Part shown: positions 2,405 through 40,472 of the stretch, piece after piece
Layout: the number at the start of each line of letters is the position of its first letter
Position numbering within the stretch: the stretch's first letter is position 1
Source of the DNA: Gemmatimonadaceae bacterium
GTDB taxonomy: Bacteria; Gemmatimonadota; Gemmatimonadetes; Gemmatimonadales; Gemmatimonadaceae
NCBI GenBank assembly: GCA_030835125.1
Contig: JAUQWM010000050.1
Span: 7,341 to 71,340 of the forward strand
Length of the DNA stretch: 64,000 nucleotides
Reading direction: 5' to 3'
Notes under the pieces: model-generated
What the model was told of the DNA's origin: nothing
The model's database searches: none
What the model saw: the letters and a program-made list of their open reading frames with translations, nothing else
Translations under genes and position numbers: made by a program

Positions 2405-2617
2405 GTGGGCTCACCGTGGGCGGCGCGCCACCCGGCGCCGCCGGTCACCGCAGGCAGGAGACGTCTCGGCGATGATGCAGGATCGATACGCATGGGGCCG
2501 CTGTTGCGCTCCGGTGGACCTGGGAGCGGGTACGTTCGCGGCTCCCGCCGTGCGCCACAAGGCAACGGTTGCATCGAGGTGACCGGGCCGGCGCGCACGA
2601 CCTCCCGCCGGCCGGCA

Positions 2618-5551
2618 TCAGCGACTGGCCGTCTGCGCGTGCCGGAGGAGCCAGCTTCGCGCCACCTCGCGTCGCGCGTGGAAGGCTGGATCCGCGCGTT
2701 CCCACGCCCGTGCGACGGCACGATAGTGGACCGACGCGCTGTCTTGCTGTCCAGCCTGGTCGAACGCTTGCGCCAACAGCTCGTGCAACTCGGTGCGCGT
2801 GATCCAGAAATTGGGGCCGTCGACCTCGCCGCGAAGCGCGGGTTGAAGCGCGGCGACCGCTTCCCGAGGCCGCCGCTGCCGCAGCAGCACTTTCGCCAGC
2901 TCAGCGTTCACGCGCGTGTAGCCTAACGTCCAGGAGTGGACGGCGGCGTGGTACTCGCGGATCGCATCGTCGTCCCGGCCGGCGGCGGCGTGCACCAGGC
3001 CGCGCAGGAAATGATGCATCCTGCGATCTCGCCCATAGGCGCTGCGCTCGCCCCAGTACTGTACCGTATCCGCCATGCGTCGGACCGATACGGTGTCGCT
3101 CATCGCTGCCTGGGCCGTCCCGAGCAGGGCGCCGTACCAGGCCAGCGTCCGTGCCTTGATGCTCGGAAACCGCGGTGTCGTGTCGACGCGGACCTGGTGC
3201 ATCGCACGCTCATAGATGGCGGCCATGATGCGCGGCTCACCCGCCGACAACGCAATCGCCGCCTCGGTGACTTCTTCGCGCTGCAGCGGGGACGCCGGGG
3301 CCGGTAACCCAGGCAGCTGTCCCGTTCGTGCAAGGCGGCGCGTCTCCGCGAGCCGGCCCTGATTGCGAAGCGCAAGCATCACCAGCCACCGCGCGTAACT
3401 GACGTCCTCCGGGTTCGCCGACGCCCACAGCGGGCGAACGTCCTTCTCCACGTCGTCGAATCGCTCGAAGACAAGGTCGAAACGGGCATCTATGGCAGGC
3501 ATGCTCCCGACCAGGCTCAGTTCCCGGTGCCGGTAGTACGCCGCCACCGCCTGCCTGTCGCGGCCCGACCTCGCCGCGGTGTACGCAAGCAGGGACCACG
3601 GTGTGGCGTTGCCGGGGCGCAGCCGGGCAAATCGCTGTGCGACGCGATCCACCGCCGGGAGCGAGTCCCACCACTGATAGACTTGAGCGATATTCGACAG
3701 GTCGTCGCAGACGTAACACGTTCCCTTGCCTATCGGCTCGGCCGCCGAATCGATGGCCGCGGCGCGGGTGTACGCATCGACGGCCGTCGCCCAGTCGCCC
3801 TGGTTTGCCCGAGCGTGTCCGAGTGCCGCCAGCGCCCGGGGGTCGTCAGGGTACCGGGTCGTGAGGCTTTCAGCGATCGCAGCCGCAGCCGGGTCGAGCA
3901 CCGAATTGAGAATGGACGCGGTGATCGTCAGGCGTTCGCGGTCCGGCGCGCGTCGCGCCAGACGAAGCGCCTGTCGGCGGAATCCGTCCTGCTTGGCGCC
4001 TCCGCCGCTGAGCGAGGCATAGTACGCCGCCATCGCGAACGTCGAGTCCTCGGCCAGCGCCGCCTCCATGAGCCGACGAGCCGCCGCGTGATCGTACTGA
4101 TAGAACGCCCGGAGACCTTCCTCATAGAGCCGGTACGCGATCGGCGATGCCGTCGTCGCCTCGGCGACGGAAGTGCGGGGTGACGGCAACCGCAAGCCGC
4201 GGGCGATCGCCGCGGTGGCGCTGTCAATCAGCGCATACCGATCCCCGGCGGTGACTCGATAGGCACCCTTGAGCAAGCCTGTCTCGAGATCGACCCGACG
4301 CACCTCGAGCGCCAGTCCCCAGTCCGGGCCGAAGAGCAGGCGTCCCTCGAGCAATTCGCTCGCGCCGGCGCGCCGCGCCGCATCGGAGTATCCGTCAGCG
4401 AGCGTGTCCTGGCCGGGTCGCATCACGTCAAAGAGCCGCGAGTTGGCAAGTACCGGCAGGCCTTCCACGCGCGCCAGGTTCGTCGCGAGCATGTCCGTGA
4501 GGACGCCGCCAATGCGAAGCGTGTCGGGCACGCCATCTTCCCGAATGAGACCGACCGCAAACGTCGGCAACGACGACGGCAACGCGGCGCGCGGGAACCA
4601 GCGCAGTTGCCAACCGGCCACGGCGACGAGCAGGAGCGCGGCCGCTCCCGCACCGATCCAGGGACCCCACGGACGGCGACGGGAACTCCGCGCTCCGTCC
4701 ACCGCAACCGGGTCGACGTCCGGCTGGAGGTCCGCCGGATTCGTGCCTTGCTGCGGCCCGATCGCCGTACTGCTCCCGGGCTCCTGCCGGGACGGGGCCG
4801 GGACGACGGCGGTCGATGCGGCTGTCGCCCGTACCACGGCTGGCGACGGCATCGCCCGCAATTCCGCCTCGAGCGCGCGAACGCCCGGATCGGGATCCGC
4901 TTCCAGCTCGCGGCGAACGATGCTCTCGTGTCCCCGGGCGAAGGCGAGCGCGTCAGCGCGATCGCCACGGGCGGCCAGCGCCTTGAGGAAGCCTAACGCG
5001 AACCGCCCGCTCACGGGATCCATCACCGTGAGCCGGCGCCACCACTCGACCGCCGCGTCACGATCCCCGGCCTCCTGGGCGGCGCCGGCGAGCGCAAGCA
5101 GCGCCTGAACGGTCGCCGCCTGCAGCCGCGCGCGCTCCTCCTCCACCCAGCGCTCGAATTCCGCGGCACCGGACAGGTAGAACCCGTCGAGGAACGGGCC
5201 GCGCACCAGGGCCACCGCCCGGGCCCGGTCGTTGGCGGCGAGAGCGGCGCGAAAGTCCCCGACATCCGAGCTGATGGCACGAGGATCCAGCGACAGGGCC
5301 GTCGCCGACACGACGACATCCGCCCCGAGCTCGTGCCGCAACTCGTACAGCGCCTGCCGCAGCGATTGCCGCGCCCGGCCTTCATCGGACTCCGGCCAGA
5401 GAACCGTGGCGAGACGCTCACGGGAAATGCCACCCTCGCCCGCGGCGGCGATGCACGCGAGGACAGCAAGCCGGAGTTGCCGCACTCGCGGCGCCGGTTC
5501 TGCTGCGGTGGACTGGAGACCAAGCCCGCCAAACGTGATGAGGCGCAACAT
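2618..5551 (-). CDS. Transmembrane SARP/BTAD-family transcriptional regulator with periplasmic TolB-N-like domain and TPR repeats
   Basis: The start is taken at MLRLITFGGLGL (ORF 2618..5665 trimmed). The N-terminus has a winged-helix plus BTAD signature (ISRERLATVLWPESDEGRARQSLRQALYELRHELG, FERWVEEERARL). One hydrophobic segment follows (WIGAGAAALLLVAVAGW). After it comes an FAVGLIRE...LTDMLATNL domain, then about 500 aa of TPR-like helical repeats. Confidence 0.75.
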   Translation of the reverse strand: MLRLITFGGLGLQSTAAEPAPRVRQLRLAVLACIAAAGEGGISRERLATVLWPESDEGRARQSLRQALYELRHELGADVVVSATALSLDPRAISSDVGDFRAALAANDRARAVALVRGPFLDGFYLSGAAEFERWVEEERARLQAATVQALLALAGAAQEAGDRDAAVEWWRRLTVMDPVSGRFALGFLKALAARGDRADALAFARGHESIVRRELEADPDPGVRALEAELRAMPSPAVVRATAASTAVVPAPSRQEPGSSTAIGPQQGTNPADLQPDVDPVAVDGARSSRRRPWGPWIGAGAAALLLVAVAGWQLRWFPRAALPSSLPTFAVGLIREDGVPDTLRIGGVLTDMLATNLARVEGLPVLANSRLFDVMRPGQDTLADGYSDAARRAGASELLEGRLLFGPDWGLALEVRRVDLETGLLKGAYRVTAGDRYALIDSATAAIARGLRLPSPRTSVAEATTASPIAYRLYEEGLRAFYQYDHAAARRLMEAALAEDSTFAMAAYYASLSGGGAKQDGFRRQALRLARRAPDRERLTITASILNSVLDPAAAAIAESLTTRYPDDPRALAALGHARANQGDWATAVDAYTRAAAIDSAAEPIGKGTCYVCDDLSNIAQVYQWWDSLPAVDRVAQRFARLRPGNATPWSLLAYTAARSGRDRQAVAAYYRHRELSLVGSMPAIDARFDLVFERFDDVEKDVRPLWASANPEDVSYARWLVMLALRNQGRLAETRRLARTGQLPGLPAPASPLQREEVTEAAIALSAGEPRIMAAIYERAMHQVRVDTTPRFPSIKARTLAWYGALLGTAQAAMSDTVSVRRMADTVQYWGERSAYGRDRRMHHFLRGLVHAAAGRDDDAIREYHAAVHSWTLGYTRVNAELAKVLLRQRRPREAVAALQPALRGEVDGPNFWITRTELHELLAQAFDQAGQQDSASVHYRAVARAWERADPAFHARREVARSWLLRHAQTASR

Positions 5552-5734
5552 CTTGACGGTGATCCTGACACACGGGCGCAGCTCTGTCAAATCGCCCGGG
5601 CGGCCGCCCCTGGGCCGGTAGGGACCATCGTCAGCGCAGAATCGTGGCGTTCTTGACGGCTTCATGACGCGCTGATGCCGTACCGCTGACGGTGCGACGT
5701 TAGCATCGGCCCCGTTTCCTCCCCTGGGGCGAGC

Positions 5735-6199
5735 GTGAGTCGTCAGATTCGAACGGGCCTTGTTCTGTCGGTCTTCGCGACGGCCTCTGCCGCGCTCGTC
5801 GGCGCGCAGACCGTCCAGCAGGTCTGGCAGGCCGACATACAGATTCGGACCCTGGAGGTCACCAAGACCAGGACGTCGCTGATGGTCCGCGTCCTCGTGT
5901 ACAGTGACAACAACGACGAGGCAAAGGACTCCCGGCTCCTCGTGCTGTTGCCGGTGGGGGCGGGCCTCGAACGGATTCCGCCGGGCTGCGCGGCGAGTGC
6001 CGGCCCGTCGATGGTGCCGTCACTGCGCGCCATGGTGCAGTGCGAACTGGGCGCGATCCCCGTCCGCGGGTTCCGCGAAGTGTTGCTGAGCACGACGCTG
6101 CCACCCGACGGCATGCCGAAGCGTTTCGGCGTCTTCGCCTATAGTGGCACGCCGGACCCGACCCCGGCGAACAATTACGCCGAGCGGATCATCCCATGA
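5735..6199 (+). CDS. Secreted protein with Ig-like (CARDB/DUF11-like) domain
   Basis: GTG start. Signal peptide MSRQIRTGLVLSVFATASAALVGAQT. A beta-rich pattern ends in TPDPTPANNYAE, as in CARDB/DUF11 domains. The stop overlaps the start of the next gene by 4 nt. Confidence 0.55.
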   Translation: MSRQIRTGLVLSVFATASAALVGAQTVQQVWQADIQIRTLEVTKTRTSLMVRVLVYSDNNDEAKDSRLLVLLPVGAGLERIPPGCAASAGPSMVPSLRAMVQCELGAIPVRGFREVLLSTTLPPDGMPKRFGVFAYSGTPDPTPANNYAERIIP

Positions 6200-7218
6200 G
6201 GCATGCGCGCCGGGTTCCCATCGGGTGGGCGGCAACGGCCCTCCTCGTCGCGGCGACTCACCTGACGGCGCAGGCTCCGCCCGCGCCGACGCTCAAGCTG
6301 CGCATTGCGGTCATGGACCTGAACGGCGTCGCGCTCAGGATGCAGACCGCGATGGCGCCGATGGGCGCATCCGGCATGGCGCCGCCCGGCATGCAGTCGA
6401 CGACGACCATCGCCATCCCGCCGCCGGCCGAGTTCGCGCGGTCACTGACCGAGGCGCTCACGACGTCGCTCGTGGCCACGAACCGCTTCATGGTCCTCGA
6501 GCGCGCCGCGCTCGCCGCCGTGCAGCAGGAACAGGATCTCGGCGCCGGTGGCCGCGTGAACAAGGAAACGGCGCCCGACATCGGGCGGATCGTCGGGGCC
6601 CAGGTGTTGATCACGGGGGACATCACCGGGTTCACCCACAGCAAGTCGTCGGTCGGTGGGCAGATCACGAACCTCATCAAGGGCGTGAACGCCTCGGTCG
6701 AGCGCGTCTCGGCGGCCGTGACCATCGACATCCGGGTCATCGATGCCGTGACCGGCGAGGTGATCGCGTCGGTCAAGGGCGACGGCCAGGCAGCCCAGAA
6801 CGGCGTGGCCACCGATCTCACCAGGGAGGAGCGGGGCTACTCGGGCTCGGTGGAGCTGACGACGCCGTTAGGCCATGCGTCGCGCATGGCGCTCCAGAAG
6901 GCGGTCGCCGGGATCGTCGCGGGCATGCCGAAGGTGAGGTGGAGCGCTCGGGTGATCGACTATCGCGACGGCGTGCTCTATGTGAACGCCGGAGCGGCGC
7001 ACGGCATCCAGCCCGGCATCGCCCTGGAGGTCTTCGATCCACAGCCGGCGCTCATCGATCCGGTGAGCGGCGTGAACCTCGGCACGCCGGACAAGCTGAT
7101 GGGCGAAGTGGTGATCGACCGGGTCGATGTGCAGTACTCGACGGCGAAGGTGGTGAGCGGGACGGACTTCAAGCGCAGCCAGGTCGTTCGGCTCAAGGGC
7201 GAGGGGTCACGGCCATGA
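6196..7218 (+). CDS. CsgG/HfaB-family periplasmic/outer-membrane channel-like protein (no lipobox) with C-terminal beta-domain
   Basis: Signal peptide, then LRIAVMDLNG...FARSLTEALTTSLVATNRFMVLERAALAAVQQEQDL...IGRIVGAQVLITGDITGF, the hallmark CsgG-family core. There is no Cys after the signal peptide. The C-terminal RVIDYRDGVLYVNAG...VVIDRV segment is a FlgT_C/SH3-like extension. Confidence 0.75.
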   Translation: MRHARRVPIGWAATALLVAATHLTAQAPPAPTLKLRIAVMDLNGVALRMQTAMAPMGASGMAPPGMQSTTTIAIPPPAEFARSLTEALTTSLVATNRFMVLERAALAAVQQEQDLGAGGRVNKETAPDIGRIVGAQVLITGDITGFTHSKSSVGGQITNLIKGVNASVERVSAAVTIDIRVIDAVTGEVIASVKGDGQAAQNGVATDLTREERGYSGSVELTTPLGHASRMALQKAVAGIVAGMPKVRWSARVIDYRDGVLYVNAGAAHGIQPGIALEVFDPQPALIDPVSGVNLGTPDKLMGEVVIDRVDVQYSTAKVVSGTDFKRSQVVRLKGEGSRP

Positions 7219-8405
7219 CGGGCGCTCGACTCCGTCGCGAGCCGCGATCTCGCGCGCCTCACGACGTCGTCTTGAGGATACCCGCGGCTCGCCATGCCGG
7301 GTACCGGACTTTCGCTGCTGCGTGGGCGATCGTCGTGGGAGTGGGGCTCGTGTTCGGGTCGGTAACCGTCGGCGCACAAGCCCGCGGTCGAGGTGAGCTT
7401 CCAAGAACCGCGAATACAACGCCAGCCGCCGCGCCGAACAATGTGCGCGCGATCGTCACGAGCCCAACGTCGGTTGCGGTGTCCTGGGACGCGGTCGCTG
7501 GAGCGCGAGGCTACATGGTGGAACGCCGACGCGCTGACAACCCTGCCTGTTGCCTGGCGCAGAGCGGTCCCATGCTGGCAACCGGTTGGCAGGACGGCGC
7601 GCTGCAGTCTGGAGCGGAGTACGACTACACGGTGACCGTTCTGCACGCGGACGGACGCGCCGGAAGCACACAGGTCATGGTGGAAACGCCCCTGCCGGTG
7701 CCTCCGACGCTCCCGATGCCGCGTGGCGCCCAGCTGGCGTCAGCGGACGGCGTGCTGCGTCTCACGCCGTGTGCGCAACGGACGACGGGCGGACCCGCCA
7801 CCACCGCGGCACGCAGCACCATCATCTCCCCCGGCTGGGTCGCCATCGAATGGGACGCCCTCGCCCCGGCCACCCACTGGGTCGTTGAACGCCAGCTTCC
7901 AACGGGCGCATGGAAGCTCATTGGTTCTACCTGTGGTGGACCAATGCCGGTATCGGCCCCGTTCACAGGGAGAACCGGCACGTCGAGCCAGGGCATTCGC
8001 GACGCCACTGGTGGGCTCGGGCCGCCCGGAACGCAGCATCTCTATCGCGTGACGGCAGTCGGCCCATCTGGTGAAGTCGGCTGGTATACGCACCGTGAGC
8101 ACGTCCCGTGTGTCTCCGGCCCTCAACTGTTCGCCACAGTCAGTGGGAGTACGGTGACGCTGACGTGGTCGAGTGGCAGCCTCAGTGTGTGCGGCATGCC
8201 TTCCGCCGTGACCGTCGAGCGCACGCCGAGATACTACACCGTCACGTCGTCATACGGCTACGTCAAGACCAGGTATGCGAGCACCTGGAGCAAGGAGCCG
8301 GTCTTCGGCGTCCCGTTAGGCACGCACACCTTCAGCATCGTCGGCGAGTACCCGCCCGACGGCAGAACGACCACGCGCTCGGTGACCGTCACCGTGGCCT
8401 ACTGA
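7215..8405 (+). CDS. Secreted/anchored protein with about three FN3-like modules
   Basis: ATG at 7215 overlaps the csgG-like stop (ATGA). Hydrophobic signal/anchor AAWAIVVGVGLVFGSVTVGAQA. FN3-like signatures recur (NVRAIVTSPTSVAVSWDAVAGARGYMVERR; GWVAIEWDALAPATHWVVERQ; VSGSTVTLTWSS). The 5' part of track ORF 6144..8405 was rejected as an out-of-frame overlap with the csgG-like gene. Confidence 0.6.
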   Translation: MTGARLRREPRSRAPHDVVLRIPAARHAGYRTFAAAWAIVVGVGLVFGSVTVGAQARGRGELPRTANTTPAAAPNNVRAIVTSPTSVAVSWDAVAGARGYMVERRRADNPACCLAQSGPMLATGWQDGALQSGAEYDYTVTVLHADGRAGSTQVMVETPLPVPPTLPMPRGAQLASADGVLRLTPCAQRTTGGPATTAARSTIISPGWVAIEWDALAPATHWVVERQLPTGAWKLIGSTCGGPMPVSAPFTGRTGTSSQGIRDATGGLGPPGTQHLYRVTAVGPSGEVGWYTHREHVPCVSGPQLFATVSGSTVTLTWSSGSLSVCGMPSAVTVERTPRYYTVTSSYGYVKTRYASTWSKEPVFGVPLGTHTFSIVGEYPPDGRTTTRSVTVTVAY

Positions 8406-8443
8406 GCACCAACCTTACCGTCACAACTCGCAGGGTATCCGCC

Positions 8444-9466
8444 ATGCACCGCATCCGCACGCTGATCACCACTGTCGTCACGGCCGTCGGGCCGGCGGTC
8501 GGCGCCCAGGAGCTGAGATCGTCCGCTCCACCGCCCGCGTCCGTTCAGGCGGTCACGACGGGCGCCACCGCGGTCCGTGTGAGCTGGACGCAGTCGCGTC
8601 TCGTCCGCGCCTACGTGGTCGCGCGGTTCCGACAGCCGAACCTGACGACGGCTGAACTCACGAGCAGCCCGGTGGTCGGGTCGGCCTGGGATGACGCCGG
8701 CCTGGCCGCCGGTCAGTCCTACGTCTACCGGGTCGCCGCGCAGTACGCGGATGGCCGGATCGGCGTCGCCGAGGTCAGCGTCACCGTGCCGGCGCCGCCA
8801 GCCAGGGTCGGGACGCCGACCCGGGCGCCTGCACCGCGTCTGTCCCCGGCGCCGCCACCGGCCTGGGCCCCCTTTAGACAGGTCTCTCGCTCGATCTGGC
8901 CGGAACTGCGGTTCGAGCTCCCGCCTGGCGCCGCGAGCATCCGTATCCAACGCCAGCAGCCCGGCCAGGCAGCGCCTCAATTGCTGACGCCTGACGCGAT
9001 TCCTGTCGCGTCGTTGAAGACCGACGGGAGTGCCGGGGGGGGCATGCGTGTGTACACGTGGCGAGACCAGGCATTGCAGGCGCCGGGGACGGCTTCCTAT
9101 CAGGTGACCGTGGATCTCGATGACGGACGCCAGGGGACGTCGCCGTGGGCGCCGTATACACCGGATTTGCGCGAGGCGCACTCGATCACGGTGACCAGGA
9201 CCGATGCCTACACGGTGCGCGTGGAGTTCTTTCACGTCGTTGACCACGAACCCAGGACCTTCAGGCTGGTGCGCCCAGGCATCCCGCTCGCCGCGAGTCC
9301 CCAGGCCACGTCGGCGACGAAGATGCTGCCCGATGGCACGTACAACATCGTCTGGAGCGTCACGGTCGGGAGTCTGAGCCCTGGCACGTACACCTGGCTC
9401 CTCAAGGCCGAGTACGAACCCGGGGTGTTCTCGAACGGCGTTCCGGTATCGGTCACGATGCCGTGA
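8444..9466 (+). CDS. Secreted protein with FN3-like modules
   Basis: The internal ATG of ORF 8108..9466 gives the signal peptide MHRIRTLITTVVTAVGPAVGAQE. FN3-like signature SVQAVTTGATAVRVSWTQSRLVRAYVVARF...YVYRVAAQYADGR. A proline-rich linker is followed by further beta-rich modules. Confidence 0.6.
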   Translation: MHRIRTLITTVVTAVGPAVGAQELRSSAPPPASVQAVTTGATAVRVSWTQSRLVRAYVVARFRQPNLTTAELTSSPVVGSAWDDAGLAAGQSYVYRVAAQYADGRIGVAEVSVTVPAPPARVGTPTRAPAPRLSPAPPPAWAPFRQVSRSIWPELRFELPPGAASIRIQRQQPGQAAPQLLTPDAIPVASLKTDGSAGGGMRVYTWRDQALQAPGTASYQVTVDLDDGRQGTSPWAPYTPDLREAHSITVTRTDAYTVRVEFFHVVDHEPRTFRLVRPGIPLAASPQATSATKMLPDGTYNIVWSVTVGSLSPGTYTWLLKAEYEPGVFSNGVPVSVTMP

Positions 9467-9584
9467 CAGGTCACGGATCGGCTGATGCTCACTGACGATC
9501 CACGTATCGCCGGAGTCAGGGCGTGCGGCTGAACGAACGGCGAAGACAATCGAGCATTCGGGCGCGAGGCGCCAAGGAGAAACG

Positions 9585-10586
9585 ATGAACAAGGCTCGCA
9601 CACTGCTGCTGACAGGTGTCCCGATGCTGGTCGCTGCGCTGTCGCTGGTGACGCCGGTGTCAGCACAGCGGGGGTCGCTCCCGAGGACCACTACCCCGCT
9701 CCCCAAGACGGACGTCAACCGGAATCCGACGATCACCAACCCGCTGCCGCCGAACACTGGACGCTACCGCGTGCTGTTGACGGGATTCGCCGCTGCCAAG
9801 GAAACGGTCGACGATCCGCGCGACTTCGACGGAGCAAAGGACGAGGTCTACGCCGTCGGAGCCTTCGCGCTGTTCGATCGCCGTGACAGCCACCTGATTT
9901 CCCAGCCGGCAATCATGAAGACTCGCGAATACGGCGACCGGAGCAAGGCGGAATTCCAGGCTCGCGCACAAGCCGGTTCAGCAAGTCCGAGCGGTGGCAT
10001 CTGGGGCGGCGGACGGGGGCCGGACTACGTTCCGCGCGAGTTCGATCCACGCTCCGCGGGTCTTCCGGTGCCGTCTCCGTATCAGTTCCCCCTGCTGCTC
10101 TTCGAGGGGGGGTTGTCCGACGGTGTCGAGGCACTGCTCGTCGCTCCGTCCTTGTGGGAGTCCGACAACTCTCCGGAGCCCTACAATCAGTACGCGAGGA
10201 ACTGGCAGACTGGAGGTATGCACGTGGTCATCAGATCGCCTGCCGTACAGAACCAGCTGCGCACCAACGTGCTCACGCCGATGGTACTGCCGGACGTGCC
10301 CGGCGTGAGGATCGCGAACATGCTGGCCGCGGTCTTCTCCGGCGGTTTGATCGGCAGCTACTCCTGGCTGATGCCGTTGATGGCAACGACGGACCGGCCG
10401 ATCGGGTTGGCGCCGATGCAGCAAGCGGCACACTACCAGGACCGCGTTGTCGTGATCACGCGCGAGAAGCTCACCGCGCTGACACCGGGAACGGGCACCA
10501 CGATCGCGATTCCATTCGGAGAGCCGATGGACAACGTGCTCAACGGCATGTACACGCTGTATCTCCGCGTGGAGCGCATACAGTGA
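9585..10586 (+). CDS. Secreted hypothetical protein
   Basis: A strong Shine-Dalgarno (AAGGAGA) lies 4 nt upstream of the ATG. Signal peptide MNKARTLLLTGVPMLVAALSLVTPVSAQ. I recognise no domain. Confidence 0.6.
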   Translation: MNKARTLLLTGVPMLVAALSLVTPVSAQRGSLPRTTTPLPKTDVNRNPTITNPLPPNTGRYRVLLTGFAAAKETVDDPRDFDGAKDEVYAVGAFALFDRRDSHLISQPAIMKTREYGDRSKAEFQARAQAGSASPSGGIWGGGRGPDYVPREFDPRSAGLPVPSPYQFPLLLFEGGLSDGVEALLVAPSLWESDNSPEPYNQYARNWQTGGMHVVIRSPAVQNQLRTNVLTPMVLPDVPGVRIANMLAAVFSGGLIGSYSWLMPLMATTDRPIGLAPMQQAAHYQDRVVVITREKLTALTPGTGTTIAIPFGEPMDNVLNGMYTLYLRVERIQ

Positions 10587-11152
10587 CGCCTGACGCTCGC
10601 GCGGCGCGCGCCGCGATCACCATCGCCGCGCTTCCGGCGAGCGAAGCCGGGGCATGCGCCGTCGATCGACGCACGTTCCTTCAGGACTCGGTCGCGGTGG
10701 TCGCCCTCGGCGCACCCGGATCGTGGGCGGCGTGGCGGGAGGCCATCGCGCGGTCGCATGAACAGCGACGGCCCCTGCTGACCGAAGAGACGTTCAACGC
10801 TCATGTCCAGTCGATCCGCAGCCAGGGCGCGACCGCTGAGCGCGACTTCGTCACCGCCGTGCGCAGCGACGTGCGGGCCCTGTTGCGCGGGCGCTTCGCC
10901 CTCACGGCGGTCCAGGAACGCAACATCGCCGCCTTTTCGACGGCTGACATTGCGACCATCGTGAGCGCCGTCGACCGCGGCTTCCTGCCGCGCAATGCCT
11001 TTCGCCTGCGCCTGGTGTCGTCCCGCGTCGCAGTGAGGCCTGGCATGGACAGGAAGGCGTCGGCTGAGTGCGACGTCACGGCCGAGCGAAGCGCGACGCA
11101 GTTGCCCGACGGCGCAATCGCCGAGGTCTGGACGGTGGTGATCGCGCCGTGA
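10583..11152 (+). CDS. Hypothetical protein with Tat-like signal (RRTFLQDSVAVVALGA)
   Basis: GTG at 10583 overlaps the upstream stop (GTGA). A twin-arginine-like motif, DRRTFLQ, is followed by a hydrophobic stretch. The 5' part of track ORF 10154..11152 overlaps the previous gene out of frame and was trimmed. Confidence 0.45.
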   Translation: MTPDARAARAAITIAALPASEAGACAVDRRTFLQDSVAVVALGAPGSWAAWREAIARSHEQRRPLLTEETFNAHVQSIRSQGATAERDFVTAVRSDVRALLRGRFALTAVQERNIAAFSTADIATIVSAVDRGFLPRNAFRLRLVSSRVAVRPGMDRKASAECDVTAERSATQLPDGAIAEVWTVVIAP

Positions 11153-11264
11153 GCGCCAACCAGTACCCGACGTCGTGTCCAATGGCCAGGACACCTGGAA
11201 GCCAGCGGTGTCGCTCATCCGGGGACGCCGGAAACACTCACCCATTCGCGCGAGGAAGTCTGCC

Positions 11265-12182
11265 ATGAAACGCTACCGGTGGCTCGGCGCAATCCTGATC
11301 GCCGCCACGGCGGGGTCCGCCGACGCGCAAGGCATCGGTGGCCTCATCAGGAAGAAAGTCGACGAGGCCATCAAGCCGAAGGAGCCGGTGGCCGCGAAAG
11401 CCGATGCCTCCACGGACGGCTCTACCCTCGGGTTCGAGCTTACCGAAAAGGTCTTCGATTCGTTCAAGAGCGCGCTCCGCCTCGAGGTGCGCATGCGCGA
11501 CGACTTTCGCGCGCGCCTCGCCAAGGTCAAGACGCCGGAGGAGTTCAGCAGATGTACGAACGAACTCGCCACGTCGGCCGATGCACAGAAGGCGATGACC
11601 GATTACACCACAGCGATCGGAAAGGCCAGCACTGACGCCGAGTCGCAGCAGGCGACGACGAGTTACTACGCCAGGCTGACAGAGCTTCATGTCGCGAAAT
11701 GCGGAGAGAATCCGCAGGAAGTCAACGCACAACGACAAGCCCAGGCATTCGGCCTTGCAGAGGACGCGGCCATCAGGGAGTTCGCCAGGGGCGTCAACCG
11801 GCCGCCGAACGATGACGAGCACCACCCCTCTGCGGCGGTAGATGTCCCGGACACCGACGCGTGTCCCGGCGGGTACCTGGCTCCGGACGCCTCCGATCTC
11901 GAGCCGTGCGACGTGGCGGCGCCGATCGCACCCCGGTATCCCGCGCCTCTCGTTGCCGACACCATCACACTCGACGCCGCGCAGGGACGATACCGGATAC
12001 TGGTCGAATGGGTCGAGAAGTTCTGCAGCATGTCCACGGAAACCCGGGCCGAGGCGGCCAGGATGGGCATTCGTATCGCCGGCACGGGCAACAACATCTT
12101 CTGGGTCTACACCGCCCGCGAGGCGCAGTGGCTGAACAAGGACTGCGACGAGCTGAAGAAACTCTTTGCGGCGCGGCAATGA
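11265..12182 (+). CDS. Secreted hypothetical protein (helical N-terminal half)
   Basis: SD GAGGAAG lies 6 nt upstream of ATG 11265. Signal peptide MKRYRWLGAILIAATAGSADAQ. No recognisable domain. Confidence 0.55.
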   Translation: MKRYRWLGAILIAATAGSADAQGIGGLIRKKVDEAIKPKEPVAAKADASTDGSTLGFELTEKVFDSFKSALRLEVRMRDDFRARLAKVKTPEEFSRCTNELATSADAQKAMTDYTTAIGKASTDAESQQATTSYYARLTELHVAKCGENPQEVNAQRQAQAFGLAEDAAIREFARGVNRPPNDDEHHPSAAVDVPDTDACPGGYLAPDASDLEPCDVAAPIAPRYPAPLVADTITLDAAQGRYRILVEWVEKFCSMSTETRAEAARMGIRIAGTGNNIFWVYTAREAQWLNKDCDELKKLFAARQ

Positions 12183-13012
12183 CCCTGTTCACGGTTCGCT
12201 TCATCATCGCCGCCGCGACGCTGTGGCAGCCGGTCCGCCCAGGCGTCTGGGTTCGCGAAATGCGGATGGCGGAGCACGGAGCCCTCTCCGTCGTGCGCGT
12301 GACGGCAGTGCGGCTCGATCCGGCTGCCGTGCGCTTCGCGCTCGACTCGGCGACCCGCGACTACGGCACGCGCGGCGCGTGGACGGTCGAGCGACTGCCG
12401 CCGAACGGGCTCCTCGCCGTCAACACCGGCCAGTTCATCGGTGGTGTGCCCTGGGGCTGGGTCGTGTCCGACGGTGGCGAGACGAGCGCGCCGGGTCAGG
12501 GCCGCCTGGCGATGTCGTTCGTGGTCGACAGCGCCGGCGTTGCATCACTCCTCGTGCCGGCCGACGTCGAGGCCGCGCGCGGGCACGTCAGGCTGGCGCT
12601 GCAGTCCTACCCCGCCCTGCTCATCGACGGCGAGCTGCCGTGGGAGCTGCGCGCGCCGGGGCGAGGCGCGAACCTCGACCATCGCGACACACGCCTCGCC
12701 ATCGGCACGCTTGCCGACGGCTCGGTCGTTGTCGCGATCACGCGGCTCAACGTCCTCGGCTCCACGGGCGAGACGCTCCCCTGGGGGCCAACCGTCGTCG
12801 AGATGGCGGAGTTCATGCGATCGCTGGGCTGCCGGCGCGCGATGCTGCTCGACGGAGGCATCTCGAGCCAGATGGCGTTTCGAGACAGGGACGGCTCCAT
12901 CCGGCGCTGGACCAACTGGCGCAAGGTGCCCCTCGGGCTGGTGGTCACCTCGCGGGCGGATCACGCGGCCGGCAATCCGCCTGCCACACTTTCGATGCAG
13001 AGGCCACGATGA
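12179..13012 (+). CDS. Phosphodiester glycosidase family protein (DUF2233/NAGPA-like)
   Basis: ATG 12179 overlaps the upstream stop (ATGA). Motifs NTGQF, LQSYPALLIDGE, HRDTRLAIGTLADGSVVVAIT and AMLLDGGISSQM match the phosphodiester glycosidase family pattern. Confidence 0.65.
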   Translation: MTLFTVRFIIAAATLWQPVRPGVWVREMRMAEHGALSVVRVTAVRLDPAAVRFALDSATRDYGTRGAWTVERLPPNGLLAVNTGQFIGGVPWGWVVSDGGETSAPGQGRLAMSFVVDSAGVASLLVPADVEAARGHVRLALQSYPALLIDGELPWELRAPGRGANLDHRDTRLAIGTLADGSVVVAITRLNVLGSTGETLPWGPTVVEMAEFMRSLGCRRAMLLDGGISSQMAFRDRDGSIRRWTNWRKVPLGLVVTSRADHAAGNPPATLSMQRPR

Positions 13013-14304
13013 ACCGACTTCACCAGGTGGTTGCAGCGATGACGGTCGCGGTCATTGGCGCCACGGCGACCCCCACGACCGCCTCCTCGCAGGGACTTGG
13101 TTCGCTCCGACGCAAGGCGGAGGAAGCCAGGAAGGCGCTGGACGCCAGGAATGCCGCCGATTCTGCCGCGAAAGCGAAGGCCGCGGCCGACAGTGCCGCC
13201 AGCGCCGCCCGGACGACCGCCATCTCCGACAGCATCCGCGCCAGGGCGGCCGCCGATTCGGCCAGGGCCGCAGCACCGTCGGGCACTCCCGCCGCCACAC
13301 AGGCTCCTGCGAGCGCAGGCGCTCGACCTGTGCAGGTCTGGGACAACTACGACTTCGTGCCGGGAAGCAAGGTGCTGTTCTACACCGACTTCAGCGAAGA
13401 CAAGGTCGGTAACTTCGCCCGCGGACTGAAATACCGGAGCGGTCCGATCGAGGTCGTCGAACGCGACGGCGCCAAGGCGCTCCGCAGCACGGGTCGCTCC
13501 ACGTTCCTGATCCCGCTCGGGAAGAAGCTCCCGGAGCGTTTCACGCTGGAGATCGACGTCATCGCGCCAAGGGAGCAGTGCTGCGGCTACGAGGTGATGA
13601 CGTTCGAGGGTGGGCCCGAACTGGACCGAGGGGAGAAGTCCGCGGAGGTCATCTGGCATCCGACTGCGACCATGATCTTCGGCGGTGGACAGGACGCCAG
13701 GAGTCAATCAAAGATCCCCGACGCGATGCAGGCCCAGTTGCTCGGTCAGGTGGCGCACGTTCGCGTGCTCATGGACAGCGCCTACTTCAAGATGTACACG
13801 AACGAGCGGCGCATGCACAACATCCCCGAGCTCCACTTCCGGCGCGACTCGGTGCTCCGCGTCTTCGTGAACGGGTTCGCGGAGAACGACCTCGCCGTCT
13901 ATATAACGAGCATCCGCGTCGCCGAGAGCGACACCGACGTGCTGTACGACGCGCTGTCGGCCAGGGGGCGCTGGGCGACGCAGGGCATCCTCTTCGCGAC
14001 CGGGAAGGCCGAGCTCAAGCCCGAGTCGCGTCCCGTGTTGAAGGAGATCGCGGCGACGATGAAGCAGCACGGCGATCTCACCATTTTGATCGAAGGCCAC
14101 ACCGACAACGTCGGCACGTCGGCCGGCAACCTGGCCCTGAGCAGTGCGCGTGCCGCCGCCGTCAAGGCGGCGCTGGTGGCCGACTTCGGGATCGACGGCG
14201 CCCGCATGACCACGAAGGGGCTGGGCGACACCGCACCGGCCGTGCCGAATGCCACCGCAACCGGTCGTGCACAGAACCGGCGTGTGGAGATCGTCAGGCA
14301 GTGA
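13009..14304 (+). CDS. OmpA-family protein (signal peptide, Ala-rich low-complexity region, unknown central domain, C-terminal OmpA peptidoglycan-binding domain)
   Basis: ATG 13009 overlaps the upstream stop (ATGA). The C-terminus FATGKAELKPESRPVLKEIAATMKQHGDLTILIEGHTDNVGTSAGNLALSSARAAAVKAALV...NRRVEIV is a canonical OmpA_C domain. Confidence 0.8.
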   Translation: MNRLHQVVAAMTVAVIGATATPTTASSQGLGSLRRKAEEARKALDARNAADSAAKAKAAADSAASAARTTAISDSIRARAAADSARAAAPSGTPAATQAPASAGARPVQVWDNYDFVPGSKVLFYTDFSEDKVGNFARGLKYRSGPIEVVERDGAKALRSTGRSTFLIPLGKKLPERFTLEIDVIAPREQCCGYEVMTFEGGPELDRGEKSAEVIWHPTATMIFGGGQDARSQSKIPDAMQAQLLGQVAHVRVLMDSAYFKMYTNERRMHNIPELHFRRDSVLRVFVNGFAENDLAVYITSIRVAESDTDVLYDALSARGRWATQGILFATGKAELKPESRPVLKEIAATMKQHGDLTILIEGHTDNVGTSAGNLALSSARAAAVKAALVADFGIDGARMTTKGLGDTAPAVPNATATGRAQNRRVEIVRQ

Positions 14305-14559
14305 GGGCGTGAGTCTCGAGCTCCGATTCGCAGGGTAGCACGGCGAGGTGTCTGCGCGGCGCGCCTGACGGGGTATGCCCGCGCGGGGCCCCACCATCTC
14401 CCCTGCCACAGCCCTCGTTCCGGGCGGTAAGAGGTCTCAGGTGAGGGATAACCCGGCTGAACGGTCCCTGATTCTCAGCGGGATTTCGCGCGCAAGGCCC
14501 TTCCGCGCCGTGCAATGCGGGATAAGAATCGTGCACCTCTCCCCGCCGTGATCCCCGCC

Positions 14560-17500
14560 ATGCCCAAGACGATTCGCCTGATCGGACTCGCCCTCTCGCT
14601 GCTCCCCGCCACGCACGCAGCCGGCCAGCCTGCCCGCACACCGCCACGGTCTGCTGCACCGGCGCCAGCGGTCGACTCGGTGCTGTTCAACAGCCTGCGC
14701 TTCCGGCTGCTCGGTCCGTTTCGCGGTGGCCGGTCCACCGCCGTCGCGGGCTTCGCCGCCCAGCCGCACACGTTCCTCGTCGGCTCCACCGGCGGCGGCG
14801 TCTGGAAGACCGAGGACGCTGGCATGTCGTGGAAGAACATCACGGACGGATTTTTCGGCGGATCCATTGGCGCCGTCGACATCGCCGACTCGGACCCCAA
14901 CGTCATCTACGTTGGCACGGGCTCGGCGGATATCCGCGGCAACTCATCGGCCGGCCGCGGTGTCTGGAAGTCTGTTGACGCGGGCGCAACGTGGGTCTTC
15001 GTGGGCTTGCCCGAGTCCGGCGCCATCCGCCGCATCGAGGTCCACCCGACCAACCCGGACCTCGTCTACGTGGCCGCGCTCGGCCATCCGTTCGGGAAGA
15101 ATCCCGAGCGCGGCGTGTTCCGGTCGAAGGACGGCGGTAAGACCTGGGATCACGTGCTGGCGCTGAATGACTCGACCGGCATGTCGGACCTGGCGATGAA
15201 TCCGAAGAACCCTCGCGTCCTGTACGCCGCGGCGTGGCGCGCCGAACGCAAGCCGTGGACGCTGATCTCCGGTGGGCCGGAGGGTGGCGTCTACCAGTCC
15301 ACCGACGGCGGCGACACCTGGAAGAAGCTTGGTGGTGGATTGCCAACCGGCATCGTCGGCAAGATCGGCGTGACCGTCTCGGCAGCGAACCCGGATCGCG
15401 TCTGGGCGATGATCGAGGCCGAGCCTGACGGCGGGGTGTACCGAACGGACGACGCCGGGAAGACGTGGACCCGGACGAACAGCGAGAACAAGCTCCGCCA
15501 GCGGGCGTGGTACTACACGCGCATCGTGGCCGACCCGGTCGACGAGAACACGGTCTACGGACTGAACGTGCAGATGTTCCGCTCGGTCGACGGCGGCAAG
15601 ACGTTCGATGTGATCAACGTGCCGCACGGCGACACCCACGACCTCTGGATCAACCCGGCCAACCGGAACGTCATGGTGCTGGGCGACGATGGCGGCGGCG
15701 TGGTCTCGGTCAACCGCGGGAAGACGTGGTCGTCGATGAACCTGCAGCCGACCGCGGAGTTCTATGATGTGGTGGTCGACAACGGGTTCCCGTATCGGGT
15801 GTATTCGTCACAGCAGGACAACACGAGCATCAGCCTGGCCGCGTGGCAGGGACCCCACCTCCTCCATCCGCTCGCGGATTGGCGGTATGCGTCGGCGTGC
15901 GAGACGGGGCCGGTGGCGCTGCATCCGGATCACCCCCAGGTGATGTACGGTGGGTGCTACGGCGGCGCGATCAGTCGCTGGGACACCGAGACCGACGAGC
16001 GCCGGACGGTGATCGTCTACCCGCAGCTCCAACTCGGCCAGGCGGCGAAGGACCTCAAGTACCGGTTCCAGTGGGTGTCGCCCATTCTCGTGTCGAAGCA
16101 CGACCGGAACACGGTTTACCACGCGTCGCAATACGTCCATCGCACGCGCGATGGCGGCATGAGCTGGGAGACGATCAGTCCGGACCTGACCACCAACGAC
16201 AAGACGAAACAGGAAGCGTCCGGCGGCCCGATCAACAACGACGTCACCGGCGTCGAGATCACCAACGTCATTTTTGCGCTGGCGGAGGATCCGGTCGACG
16301 CGCGGACGTTGTGGGCCGGCAGCGACGACGGTCGCCTCCACATCACGAGAGACGGCGGCACCTCGTGGCAGGACATCACACCACCCGGCATGCCGACGTA
16401 CGGCACGGTGGAGAACATCGACCTGTCCGCGCACCGGCCGGGGCGCGCGTTCGTGGGCGTACAGGCGTTCCGGCTGGACGACTTCCGGCCATACATCTTC
16501 AAGACCGAAGACTACGGCCGGACATGGACCCTGGTGGTGAATGGCATGGCGACGGGAAGTCCCGTGCGTTCGGTGCGCGAAGACCCGGTCAAGGATGGCG
16601 TTGCCTATGCCGGGACGGAACACGGCTTGTACGTCACGTTCGACGGCGGGCGTCGCTGGCAGGCGATGCAGCTCAACCTGCCCGTGTCGCCGATCGCGGA
16701 CATGCGCGTCCACCGCAACGATCTCGTCGTGGCGACGCAGGGGCGGTCGCTCTGGATCCTGGACGATCTCACGCCGTTGCATCAGCTGGCCGACGTCGCG
16801 TCAGGCGCGCGCGCGCACCTCTACACGCCGCGTGATGCCTGGCGAGTGCAGGTGGGCGGCGGCGGCGCAGGCGGCGTTGAAGCGGCGCCCGACCCCGCAC
16901 CGGCCGGCGCCATCATCCAGTACTACCTGGCGACACCCGATTCGGCCATCCGGATCGAGATACTCGATGCCCGTGGCGCGAGTGTCCGCTCGTTCTCGAC
17001 GGACACCGCGGCGGCCCGGCAGAACGGCACGACGGTGCTGGCGATCCGGCGCGGCGGCAACCGGCTGATCTGGGACCTCACCTATGCCGGTCCCCGCTAT
17101 CCGAAGAACGCCGTCACGTGGGGATACACCGGCGGCGTGAAGGCTCCACCCGGTGCCTATCGCGTTCGCCTGACGGCCAACGGTGTGACCATGGAGAAAC
17201 CGTTCCGCGTGCTCGCGGACCCGCGCCTGACGGTGTCGCAGACCGACTACGATGAGCAGTTCCGGATCGCCATCGAGGTTCGCGACTCGATCACCTCGGT
17301 CACGAACGCCATCGAGACGATTCGCTCGCTGAAGGAACAGGCCGACCGGGCGCTCGAGCAGGCCGCACGCATCGAACGCACGAGCGACGTGAAGCCGATG
17401 GCGGACTCGCTCGCGTCCCGACTGACCGGCGTGGAAGGCGGCCTCATTCAAACGAAGAGCCAGAGTGGCCAGGACCCGATCCGGTTCGCCGGGAAGCTCG

Positions 17501-17739
17501 ACAACCAGCTCGCCGAGCTCTATGGCTACGTGACGGGACCGAGTGGCTACATCGCGGGTGGTGTCGAAGGTCGGCCCACGCGTGGCGCGCTGGAACGGCT
17601 CGCCGACCTGCAGCAGGTGTGGGCGCCGCTGCGCGCGCAGCTCCAGCAGATCATCGACCGGGATCTCGCCGCATTCAACGCGCTGCTCCAGCGGCTCGGC
17701 CTCGGCGCGATCGTTGTTCCGCGTCGGACGATCATGTGA
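14560..17739 (+). CDS. Sortilin/VPS10-type BNR (Asp-box) repeat protein, glycosyl-hydrolase-like
   Basis: Signal peptide MPKTIRLIGLALSLLPATHAAGQ. Repeated Asp-box motifs are present (SxDxGxTW: TEDAGMSW, SVDAGATW, SKDGGKTW, STDGGDTW, TDDAGKTW, SVDGGKTF, TRDGGMSW, TRDGGTSW, TEDYGRTW). Confidence 0.8.
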   Translation: MPKTIRLIGLALSLLPATHAAGQPARTPPRSAAPAPAVDSVLFNSLRFRLLGPFRGGRSTAVAGFAAQPHTFLVGSTGGGVWKTEDAGMSWKNITDGFFGGSIGAVDIADSDPNVIYVGTGSADIRGNSSAGRGVWKSVDAGATWVFVGLPESGAIRRIEVHPTNPDLVYVAALGHPFGKNPERGVFRSKDGGKTWDHVLALNDSTGMSDLAMNPKNPRVLYAAAWRAERKPWTLISGGPEGGVYQSTDGGDTWKKLGGGLPTGIVGKIGVTVSAANPDRVWAMIEAEPDGGVYRTDDAGKTWTRTNSENKLRQRAWYYTRIVADPVDENTVYGLNVQMFRSVDGGKTFDVINVPHGDTHDLWINPANRNVMVLGDDGGGVVSVNRGKTWSSMNLQPTAEFYDVVVDNGFPYRVYSSQQDNTSISLAAWQGPHLLHPLADWRYASACETGPVALHPDHPQVMYGGCYGGAISRWDTETDERRTVIVYPQLQLGQAAKDLKYRFQWVSPILVSKHDRNTVYHASQYVHRTRDGGMSWETISPDLTTNDKTKQEASGGPINNDVTGVEITNVIFALAEDPVDARTLWAGSDDGRLHITRDGGTSWQDITPPGMPTYGTVENIDLSAHRPGRAFVGVQAFRLDDFRPYIFKTEDYGRTWTLVVNGMATGSPVRSVREDPVKDGVAYAGTEHGLYVTFDGGRRWQAMQLNLPVSPIADMRVHRNDLVVATQGRSLWILDDLTPLHQLADVASGARAHLYTPRDAWRVQVGGGGAGGVEAAPDPAPAGAIIQYYLATPDSAIRIEILDARGASVRSFSTDTAAARQNGTTVLAIRRGGNRLIWDLTYAGPRYPKNAVTWGYTGGVKAPPGAYRVRLTANGVTMEKPFRVLADPRLTVSQTDYDEQFRIAIEVRDSITSVTNAIETIRSLKEQADRALEQAARIERTSDVKPMADSLASRLTGVEGGLIQTKSQSGQDPIRFAGKLDNQLAELYGYVTGPSGYIAGGVEGRPTRGALERLADLQQVWAPLRAQLQQIIDRDLAAFNALLQRLGLGAIVVPRRTIM

Positions 17740-18952: not shown

Positions 18953-19176
18953 GCGCTGGTCTCCATGAGATGGCAGTCGACCTGATGGCATCCTCCCTGC
19001 TACAATCGCGCCATGGACAAGGCGTGGTCAACCGCCCCCAGTCAATCCGGGCACGAATGTTGTCTGTTGAGGTCCTTGCTCGCCGGCACTCATCTTCGAC
19101 GCATGGGCAAGGGAGGAGAACCCTTCAACAGGCAGGTCACTGGGATCAGACAGACGCGCCACGTTATGTTCACCCG

Positions 19177-25126: not shown

Positions 25127-25278
25127 GGTGTCACCGATTGAGGGCGGCCCAGGGGGATCGGGATGCCAGCAAATTTCGCCGCGCCGAGGCTGCTCGCCAG
25201 AGGGAATCCGTTCCGGCGATATCGGCGCGAACGGCCAGCGGAATTGCCGAAGGGACTCTGGGGCCCCACTTTTCCCCG

Positions 25279-31481: not shown

Positions 31482-31482
<1 letters not shown>
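31434..31482. repeat. Tandem heptanucleotide array, 7 units (CCGCCCT/TTGCGCT family), abutting the rpoC stop codon
   Basis: Read directly: ccgccct ttgcgct ttgcgcc ctgcgct ccgccct ccgccct ctgccct. The last base overlaps the rpoC stop (tta on the + strand at 31482-31484). Confidence 0.85.
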
Positions 31483-35798
<4,316 letters not shown>

Positions 35799-35801
35799 CG
35801 A

Positions 35802-40472
<4,671 letters not shown>

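Follow-up and report, generated by a model that had tools for sequence, protein, structure and literature searches.

A predicted membrane-anchored SARP-type regulator and a divergent envelope operon encoding a CsgG/FlgT-like protein in Gemmatimonadaceae

The envelope-associated proteins CsgG, FlgT and PelC, for which structures have been solved, are all ring-forming, and E. coli CsgG that is not lipidated remains soluble, in a pre-pore state (PDB 4UV2). In type IV pili, the secretin-associated protein TsaP makes up a ring in the periplasm through which an outer-membrane machine is connected to the peptidoglycan. Among membrane-bound transcriptional activators, ToxR carries conserved periplasmic cysteines. 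Within FlgT, the FlgT_M domain builds the ring and the FlgT_C domain scaffolds MotY, the C-terminal domain of which is OmpA-like (preprint 10.64898/2025.12.02.691832). At promoters targeted by the Streptomyces antibiotic regulatory proteins (SARPs), direct repeats are spaced by 11 or 22 bp and 8 bp separate the 3' repeat from the -10 box; the activator there stands in for -35 recognition (PMC10936776). The locus described here contains relatives of several of these proteins. It lies in a stretch of 64,000 nucleotides from Gemmatimonadaceae bacterium (assembly GCA_030835125.1, contig JAUQWM010000050.1, positions 7,341 to 71,340 of the forward strand), the whole of which is termed the window, and comprises a minus-strand regulatory gene, g0, and nine divergent plus-strand genes, g1 to g9, of which g2 encodes a CsgG/FlgT-like protein. 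A preliminary description of this DNA had placed the limits of the cluster at the nine genes between 5735 and 14304, thereby omitting g0 and the SARP-box promoter region (5552-5734), the most informative feature of the locus; the cluster extends left to 2618, and both g0 and the promoter region belong to it.

The gene g0 (2618..5551, minus strand; Pfam BTAD and TPR_2) encodes a predicted membrane-anchored SARP-type regulator. Its open reading frame (ORF) of 1015 aa reaches 5665, and the conserved start is ATG 5551 (MLRLITFGG). The order of domains is a winged helix-turn-helix (wHTH) with BTAD, a Pro-rich linker, one transmembrane helix (approximately residues 334-356 in the numbering of the 1015-aa ORF), a conserved periplasmic domain, and tetratricopeptide repeats (TPRs) with a CxxC motif. 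BTAD is detected at 45.9 bits against a Pfam cut-off of 22.1 (E 1e-11), and positions 24-275 of a profile built from ten homologs align with residues 20-286 of EmbR over both domains (E 0.049); the same profile also aligns with TPR proteins. All ten homologs carry a single transmembrane helix after a basic stretch, as well as the CxxC motif; the helix is in each case a hydrophobic 19-mer (Kyte-Doolittle 1.7-2.5) with Arg or Lys just before it. The periplasmic part, of some 650 residues, opens with a domain of 140 residues that is highly conserved; TPR repeats come next and contain the invariant CxxC, located at residues 650-653 (3707-3718, minus strand), where C-x-x-C and a following YxWWDSLPA are the same in the ten homologs. 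This motif is possibly a redox- or metal-sensing site.

The combination of wHTH and BTAD, a single transmembrane helix, periplasmic TPRs and no P-loop identifies g0 as a SARP with a predicted ToxR-like topology. A P-loop was sought in g0 and none was found, indicating that there is no NOD/NB-ARC ATPase domain; this, together with the conserved transmembrane helix, rules out a cytoplasmic STAND regulator of the AfsR kind. The domain at residues 357-505 was also considered as a homolog of the CsgG/TolB-N fold, and its hhalign comparison with the g2 family was non-significant (probability 0.14). A literature search on membrane-bound SARPs found no description of an architecture like that of g0.

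Two promoters can be recognized between g0 and g1, and their conservation was assessed in a comparison set of 12 distinct Gemmatimonadaceae loci, onto each of which the window proteins were mapped. The g0 promoter (5562..5590, minus strand) consists of a -35 box TTGACA (5585-5590), a 17-nt spacer and a -10 box CAGGAT (5562-5567) that sits 10 nt upstream of ATG 5551. The arrangement TTGACA-N17-CA(T/G)(G/C)AT, about 10 nt upstream of the g0 start, is kept in nine of the ten loci examined, the exception being L001, where TTGACA is present and the -10 box is less clear. Facing the operon is a SARP-box array (5653..5691, plus strand) of four direct repeats in 11-bp phase, namely TTGACG at 5653, ATGACG at 5664, a degenerate ATGCCG at 5675 and CTGACG at 5686, which constitutes a candidate g0 site. 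The operon -10 box, TAGCAT (5701..5706, plus strand), begins 8 bp past the heptamer CTGACGG, and a -35 hexamer at the normal distance of 17 bp from it is found neither in the window nor in the 12 loci. When the loci are aligned on the TAnnnT -10 box, four TTGACR-type repeats, (T/C)TGAC(G/A), recur at exact 11-bp intervals in all 12, and in all 12 the last heptamer ends 8 bp before that box. In each of the 12 loci the geometry of the operon promoter is that of the published SARP rule.

The specificity of the array was gauged by scanning the window, the related loci, the paralogous clusters and 20 shuffled windows at a cut-off of at least 21 of 24. The array is the sole match in the 64-kb window (0.13 expected); ten of the 12 related loci reach the cut-off, at the operon promoter only, and in the other two, L004 and L007, the array is present with a score under the cut-off. 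One match was obtained among the 20 shuffled windows, and none in paralogous clusters that have no g0. The ATG of g1 lies 7-8 nt past the -10 box in nine loci, so that the mRNA is predicted to be leaderless there; in the window, g1 starts at GTG 5735, which predicts a leader of about 22 nt. Taken together, these sequence features make it very probable that g0 activates the divergent operon through the repeat array. The regulatory link from g0 to the operon is well supported, and we infer that it is exerted through DNA binding by g0.

Comparison of the 12 loci also defines what is constant about the cluster. A g2 homolog occurs in every one, and g1 lies directly upstream of g2 in ten, being absent from L001 and L008; in those ten the two genes always overlap by 4 nt (ATGA or GTGA). 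In each of the 11 loci with enough flank, a g0 homolog (52-57% identical) adjoins the CsgG-like gene, in divergent, convergent or co-directional orientation. The remainder is far less stable: g9 is found in seven loci, two of those with its middle domain only, the g7-g8 pair in three, once on the other strand, and the fn3 modules and the g5 domain recur between loci, sometimes fused. On sequence comparison the conserved unit is g0-g1-g2 together with a changing repertoire of exported proteins, and the earlier proposal that all nine genes form a conserved unit fails across the 12 loci. A separate observation concerns six related loci in which a small twin-arginine-like protein (VSRRDSVRLAAALALGAG) and a CxxCxxCC (PF03692) protein, neither of which is present in the window, are encoded between the variable genes and g0; the pair occupies 11867-12865 in L001, 15492-16589 in L003, 3289-4337 in L011, 14478-15656 in L015 and 12743-13819 in L016.

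More distant paralogs of g2 occur in contexts that have neither g0 nor g1, namely among unannotated exported proteins and beside a TPR-containing signaling protein of the TPR-CHAT, wHTH-TPR or kinase-TPR type, and the pairing of CsgG/FlgT-like proteins with TPR signaling proteins seems to be a recurring theme. Large TPR-CHAT proteins stand beside distant paralogs at 3095-5953 of L017 and 10151-13189 of L021, with genes for extracytoplasmic function sigma factors nearby. In the paralogous cluster L018, a Peptidase_M23 protein and a CARDB-BON protein directly follow the CsgG-like gene. Small proteins encoded upstream of the distant CsgG-like paralogs in L017 and L018 were considered as g1 homologs, and this was unsupported.

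Within the window, the organization of the nine plus-strand genes largely agrees with the preliminary description. That there are nine co-directional genes between 5735 and 14304 is borne out by GC content at third codon positions (GC3), which is 0.72-0.94 in the predicted frame throughout and changes frame at the proposed gene junctions. All five of the 4-nt start/stop overlaps that had been claimed are present (ATGA at 6196, 7215, 12179 and 13009; GTGA at 10583), those downstream of g1/g2 being g2/g3, g5/g6, g7/g8 and g8/g9, as are the strong Shine-Dalgarno sites described before two starts, AAGGAG upstream of g5 and GAGGAAG upstream of g7. The starts of g4 and g7, which had been placed at the beginnings of their ORFs (8108 and 11175), are corrected to ATG 8444 and ATG 11265, each with a signal peptide and a purine-rich stretch upstream; for g3, ATG 7215 and TTG 7272 are alternative starts. 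A consensus scan of 5400-14700 found no promoter-like or terminator-like site on the plus strand, using an E. coli-type consensus, and Rfam gave no matches. Eight of the nine products have an N-terminal signal-peptide-like or Tat-like (twin-arginine translocation) sequence, and the N-terminus of g8 has only a hydrophobic stretch that falls under the hydropathy cut-off. The view that the cluster is a series of translationally coupled genes for exported or envelope proteins is supported. In the 118-nt gap between g4 and g5 (9467-9584), CTGATG and CTGACG stand 10 nt apart; they resemble SARP repeats, are off the 11-bp phase, and score under the scan threshold.

The first of the core proteins, g1 (5735..6199, plus strand), is an exported 154-aa protein with an Ig-like beta sandwich and two invariant Cys residues, and appears to be an obligate partner of g2. 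Pfam, NCBIfam and PHROGs searches of g1, and likewise of g5, g6 and g7, gave zero matches, and of 321 g1 homologs none has a Pfam domain. The AlphaFold2 model (predicted local distance difference test, pLDDT, 79) shows the sandwich, for which Foldseek returns generic matches. The original assignment of g1 as Ig/CARDB-like can accordingly be kept in its first part: no CARDB match was found in g1, weak DUF11 matches occur in seven of 25 homologs, and the C-terminus has a DUF11/CARDB-like NN motif. The Ig-like sandwich and its solely generic matches rule out a CsgE- or CsgF-like accessory.

The second core protein, g2 (6196..7218, plus strand), is a non-lipidated CsgG/FlgT-like protein of two domains, a CsgG-type alpha/beta domain (28-251) and a FlgT_C-like beta domain (approximately 250-335). 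Its earlier placement in the CsgG family is confirmed by Pfam PF03783 at 1.1e-31 and 110.2 bits (cut-off 20.8), covering profile positions 3-208 of 210. Pfam LpoB is matched as well, at 29.6 bits (curated cut-off 22.3), FlgT_M (18.5 bits, cut-off 31.2) and FlgT_C (14.1 bits, cut-off 27) remain below threshold, and no Pfam FlgT_N match is found. The signal peptide is of the signal peptidase I type and has no Cys, and the lipobox Cys, already reported as missing from g2, is absent from all 19 aligned homologs. The exact protein is present in NCBI, and hundreds that are 60-79% identical occur in Gemmatimonadaceae genomes and soil metagenomes. The two-domain architecture is more widespread still: a HMMER search against 1.84 billion representatives gave 96 clusters at E <= 1e-30 and 979 at <= 1e-10, and a lipobox-like motif was seen in 14 of 98 full-length relatives (50% clustering), indicating that the family is mostly non-lipidated.

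In the AlphaFold2 model of g2, long strands (137-152, 164-183 and 189-206) are followed by the C-terminal beta domain. Foldseek places FlgT first, with FlgT in the Vibrio LPHT ring at 1.3e-14 (template modeling score 0.56) and the FlgT crystal structure at 1.1e-13, over about 310 columns; CsgG follows at approximately 1e-8 (1.1e-8) over about 235 columns with probability 1.0, and after it come HpaA, PelC, LptE and LpoB, all ring or outer-membrane lipoprotein folds. The C-terminal domain, at residues 261-321, has a non-significant profile match to TsaP (E 0.17). In curli CsgG, two amphipathic beta hairpins from each subunit contribute to a 36-strand barrel in the outer membrane. The g2 segments corresponding to the CsgG hairpins align with TM1 of E. 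coli CsgG, with a length difference of 2 residues; these putative hairpins have almost no aromatics, and the invariant polar residues N159 and R170 fall on the putative lipid face. The beta1-alpha1 loop (residues ~45-78; 6330-6430) is low in complexity, rich in Met, Gln, Pro and Gly, predicted to be disordered, variable in length among homologs, and located at the position of the CsgG constriction loop.

A curli operon, as the preliminary description had already judged, is ruled out. No CsgA/B/E/F-like family was found in g1-g9 (Pfam and NCBIfam, E < 0.1), and the genes called in the related loci include no csgE, csgF or csgA/B partners; there is no lipobox, and g2 misses the NCBIfam curli CsgG equivalog NF011731 at 23.5 bits against 505. 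The assessment of the cluster as uncharacterized is also supported, and a literature search on CsgG-like proteins in Gemmatimonadetes found nothing relevant.

Downstream of g2 lie the variable exported proteins. The first of these, g3 (7215..8405, plus strand), is modular and fn3-like (21.0 bits against a gathering score of 25), with homologs of 30-48% identity in L003, L007, L008, L010 and L013. It is followed by g4 (8444..9466, plus strand), another fn3-like protein (17.4 bits against 25), the conserved C-terminal domain of which is 40% identical in L001, L008 and L011. The FN3-like character first ascribed to both thus finds PF00041 matches, each below the gathering score; paralogs in other loci reach 21.7-24.1 bits, and in PHROGs the fn3 segments of g3 and g4 match phage tail proteins, in the regions where these carry fn3. 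The product of g5 (9585..10586, plus strand) carries a novel domain of about 285 aa with zero matches in Pfam, NCBIfam, PHROG and PDB profile searches; its homologs are 55-57% identical in L003 and L010 and 26-30% identical in L012 and L013, and in L013 the domain is fused behind an fn3 domain. The 189-aa product of g6 (10583..11152, plus strand; GC3 0.84-0.87 in frame) is an orphan. The RRTFL Tat-like signal noticed earlier belongs to this protein, as DRRTFLQ beginning at residue 28 of the called ORF and followed by SVAVVALGAPG, compared with S/T-R-R-x-F-L-K ahead of a hydrophobic stretch in the Tat consensus; a correspondence with F7, the Tat-signal protein of other loci, was considered, and no similarity was seen between the two.

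The remaining three genes form the distal part of the operon. The protein encoded by g7 (11265..12182, plus strand) is exported, helical and Cys-containing, is always paired with g8, and begins its mature form with the basic motif GIGGLIRKKV; its homologs adjoin NAGPA in L004 and L007. In agreement with its first description as a phosphodiester glycosidase, g8 (12179..13012, plus strand) is a putative member of the NAGPA/DUF2233 family by Pfam match (PF09992, 2.7e-19, 70.5 bits against 25, residues 79-257), with homologs 55-64% identical in L004 and L007. The exported g9 (13009..14304, plus strand) starts with a basic motif, continues through an Ala-rich linker into a novel, conserved domain of about 220 aa and ends, as had also been recognized, in an OmpA-like domain of the peptidoglycan-binding type (PF00691, 2.5e-23, 82.7 bits against 27.2, residues 328-424). 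Homologs 60-77% identical are present in L004, L007, L015 and L016; L003 and L010 have only the middle domain, for which a profile search against PDB sequences gave zero matches. In every locus the g7 and g9 families have in common a basic amphipathic mature N-terminus, Q-(G)-[ILF]-G-x-L-[IKR]-[KR]-K, a candidate docking or membrane-association peptide. A motif of this type, GLGxLxKK... (11265-11330 and 13009-13130 in the window), is also seen directly behind the signal peptide in some distant CsgG-like proteins (P0259, P0269, P0277 and P0286), in which it may stand in for a lipid anchor. A common N-terminal cargo signal was sought as well: G.LPRT of g3 and g5 was found in the window only, and the general feature is a loose Pro-rich linker.

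The best reading of these data is that the module is specific to Gemmatimonadaceae and consists of a regulator and the operon activated by that regulator. In its full form, which we consider on balance probable, the operon is switched on by a ToxR-like SARP and specifies a ring, located in the periplasm or the outer membrane, together with exported partners that differ between lineages; the regulatory part of this picture is much firmer than the structural part. The regulator g0 would be made constitutively from its own sigma70-type promoter, and its TPR/CxxC ectodomain would sense a periplasmic cue. It would then bind the four TTGACR repeats, set in 11-bp phase, that take the place of a -35 box in the divergent promoter, giving rise to a transcript from g1 to g9, presumably leaderless in most relatives. 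Translational coupling would yield g1 and g2 in coupled amounts, and the two proteins might form a ring under the outer membrane, at its inner face, or within it. Such a ring, with the FlgT_C-like domain of g2, could be the platform on which the peptidoglycan-binding g9, g5, the fn3 modules and the g7-NAGPA pair dock, a proposal made by analogy with the scaffolding of OmpA-like MotY by FlgT_C in Vibrio.

Several observations weigh against this reading. Firstly, detection of the g0 wHTH is weak (Trans_reg_C E 0.18, ToxR 0.57), and the quality of the g2 model is moderate (pLDDT 64). Secondly, three intra-operon gaps of 38-118 nt could hold promoters of an unfamiliar type. Thirdly, a docking role common to the accessory genes is conjectural, given how strongly they vary from locus to locus, and g6 has no homolog in any related locus. 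Finally, the metagenome-assembled genome MFD04944.bin.2.100 holds two copies of the cluster, on contigs L015 and L016, and the L016 copy keeps g0, g1, g9 and the SARP box beside a g2 remnant (10001-10495) from which the signal peptide and first strand are gone and in which the frame is lost past DLGASG, implying that g2 is not required in cis.

The alternative that survives best, unlikely as it is, holds that g2 is a true CsgG-type pore in a non-curli, type VIII-like system that exports the fn3 proteins, g5 and others, with g1 as accessory and g9 as peptidoglycan anchor, in line with the secretion or surface-assembly role, the fn3 cargo and the OmpA anchor suggested in the preliminary description. 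It is consistent with the full-length Pfam match, which includes both hairpin regions, with the near-equal hairpin lengths, with the unusually long modeled strands, with the long variable loop at the constriction position, and with a variable exported set beside a constant core, which fits a channel-plus-cargo pattern. The missing lipobox and the aromatic-poor hairpins with invariant polar residues, which have no aromatic girdle, argue against a standard CsgG pore, as do the wide failure of the curli equivalog model, the better structural match to FlgT, a periplasmic ring protein that is not a pore, and the lack of a common N-terminal targeting motif across the putative cargo in other loci. 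An elaboration, in which g1 and g2 form a non-lipidated CsgG-type pore secreting or displaying rapidly diversifying fn3 proteins and the g0 ectodomain monitors pore or cargo and feeds back, appears decidedly less likely.

Also improbable is a peptidoglycan or cell-wall module, in which g2 would be an LpoB- or FlgT-like adaptor for wall enzymes near g9 and g0 would sense envelope stress. The LpoB match, the NAGPA and OmpA domains within the operon and the Peptidase_M23 and CARDB-BON proteins of L018 would agree with such a function, but the LpoB match spans only 70 residues of a common fold, NAGPA and g9 are absent from L001, L008, L011 and L013, all of which keep g0-g1-g2, and none of the loci contains genes for penicillin-binding proteins or wall synthesis. 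The notion that g0-g1-g2 alone is functional and that unrelated envelope genes are co-transcribed downstream by chance in this strain would account for gene content and order that differ in nearly every locus, for the orphan g6 and for the g7-g8 pair lying on the opposite strand upstream of g1 in L004, but has the smallest probability of all, as most loci, despite rearrangement, hold members of the same few families (fn3 modules, g5 domain, g9, g7-g8) between g2 and g0, four downstream junctions are 4-nt overlaps, and the g7 and g9 families share their distinctive mature N-terminal motif.

The surroundings of the cluster represent an ordinary chromosomal context in which no signs of mobile elements were seen. 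The G+C content is 64-71% across the first 24 kb of the window, and rpoB/rpoC (rpoC and rpoB at 31482-40472, minus strand), cysS and uvrA further along indicate a chromosomal location. A CarboxypepD_reg-Plug-beta-barrel outer-membrane protein of the TonB-dependent type is encoded at 18970-21654 (plus strand). Past the 3' end of g0, two long ORFs overlap on opposite strands within 1274-2926, one at 1376-2926 (plus strand) with zero Pfam matches and one at 1274-2404 (minus strand) with high GC3. Two Sortilin/BNR-repeat paralogs of about 1100 aa, 34% identical, are located at 14515-17739 (plus strand) and 21917-25333 (minus strand); the former begins 210 nt past g9 on the same strand, and a 34% identical Sortilin/BNR homolog adjoins g0 in L013 (18535-20934).

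Each domain of this locus is known individually. The novelty lies in how they are combined, outside the Actinobacteria: a SARP anchored in the membrane and equipped with a periplasmic TPR sensor would drive an operon that centers on a non-lipidated CsgG/FlgT-like protein and whose transcript is predicted to be leaderless in most related loci. SARP regulators would thereby extend beyond their usual setting, to a membrane-anchored form governing envelope proteins instead of antibiotic synthesis, and a poorly studied soil phylum gains a concrete, testable regulatory circuit with a defined array, promoter and regulator. As most relatives of g2 have no lipid anchor and do have a FlgT_C-like domain, the automatic name 'curli secretion channel CsgG', which is attached to hundreds of them, is probably misleading. 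Were g2 a pore, it would represent a new secretion route, and, were the proposed g0 feedback also true, a type VIII-like secretion system that regulates itself and has no relation to amyloid export; as a collar, it would count as a relative of the H ring outside flagella.

The structural proteins were compared with several known systems. One is TsaP (PDB 6VE2), to the FlgT_C-like part of which the C-terminal domain of g2 has its weak, non-significant match; unlike TsaP, g2 has no LysM domain, and a secretin gene is not nearby. The FlgT-MotY pair of the Vibrio H and T rings (PDB 3W1E, 8Z5N) is the nearest worked example: FlgT is the best structural match of g2 over both domains, likewise has no lipid anchor, is exported by the Sec route and builds a ring in the periplasm beneath the outer membrane, and just as FlgT_C docks MotY with its OmpA-like C-terminal domain, the operon of g2 contains the OmpA-like g9. 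The two differ in that g2 has no FlgT_N, remains below the Pfam thresholds of FlgT_M and FlgT_C, and is far closer to CsgG in sequence; a flagellar H-ring locus is ruled out, as flagellar genes are absent from the window ORFs scanned and from the related loci. With curli CsgG (PDB 4UV3, 4UV2, 6SI7), g2 has in common membership of PF03783, the alpha/beta fold and hairpins of near-equal length, and differs in the absence of an N-terminal lipobox and of CsgA, B, E and F partners, in its extra FlgT_C-like C-terminal domain, in its aromatic-poor hairpins, and in the long Met/Gln/Pro-rich segment that replaces the constriction loop.

The regulator, in turn, combines features of two classes of activator. 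Like the activators of the ToxR/CadC type, g0 has a cytoplasmic wHTH, a single transmembrane helix and a periplasmic sensor domain, and as in ToxR there are conserved periplasmic cysteines, but its DNA-binding module is the wHTH and BTAD of a SARP, and its ectodomain consists of some 650 aa with TPR repeats, whereas theirs is a small alpha/beta domain. With the SARP activators AfsR, EmbR and ActII-ORF4 it shares BTAD and an EmbR-like N-terminal region, and the position of its TPRs after the SARP domain follows the 'large SARP' plan; its transmembrane helix puts the TPR region in the periplasm, and it has no NOD/NB-ARC ATPase. The promoter resembles known SARP targets in its 11-bp repeat spacing, in the 8 bp that separate the 3' repeat and the -10 box and in the lack of a usable -35, and differs from them in having four repeats instead of two or three. 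The host of g0 belongs to the Gemmatimonadota and not to the Actinobacteria, and its putative target is an envelope operon in place of a biosynthetic gene cluster.

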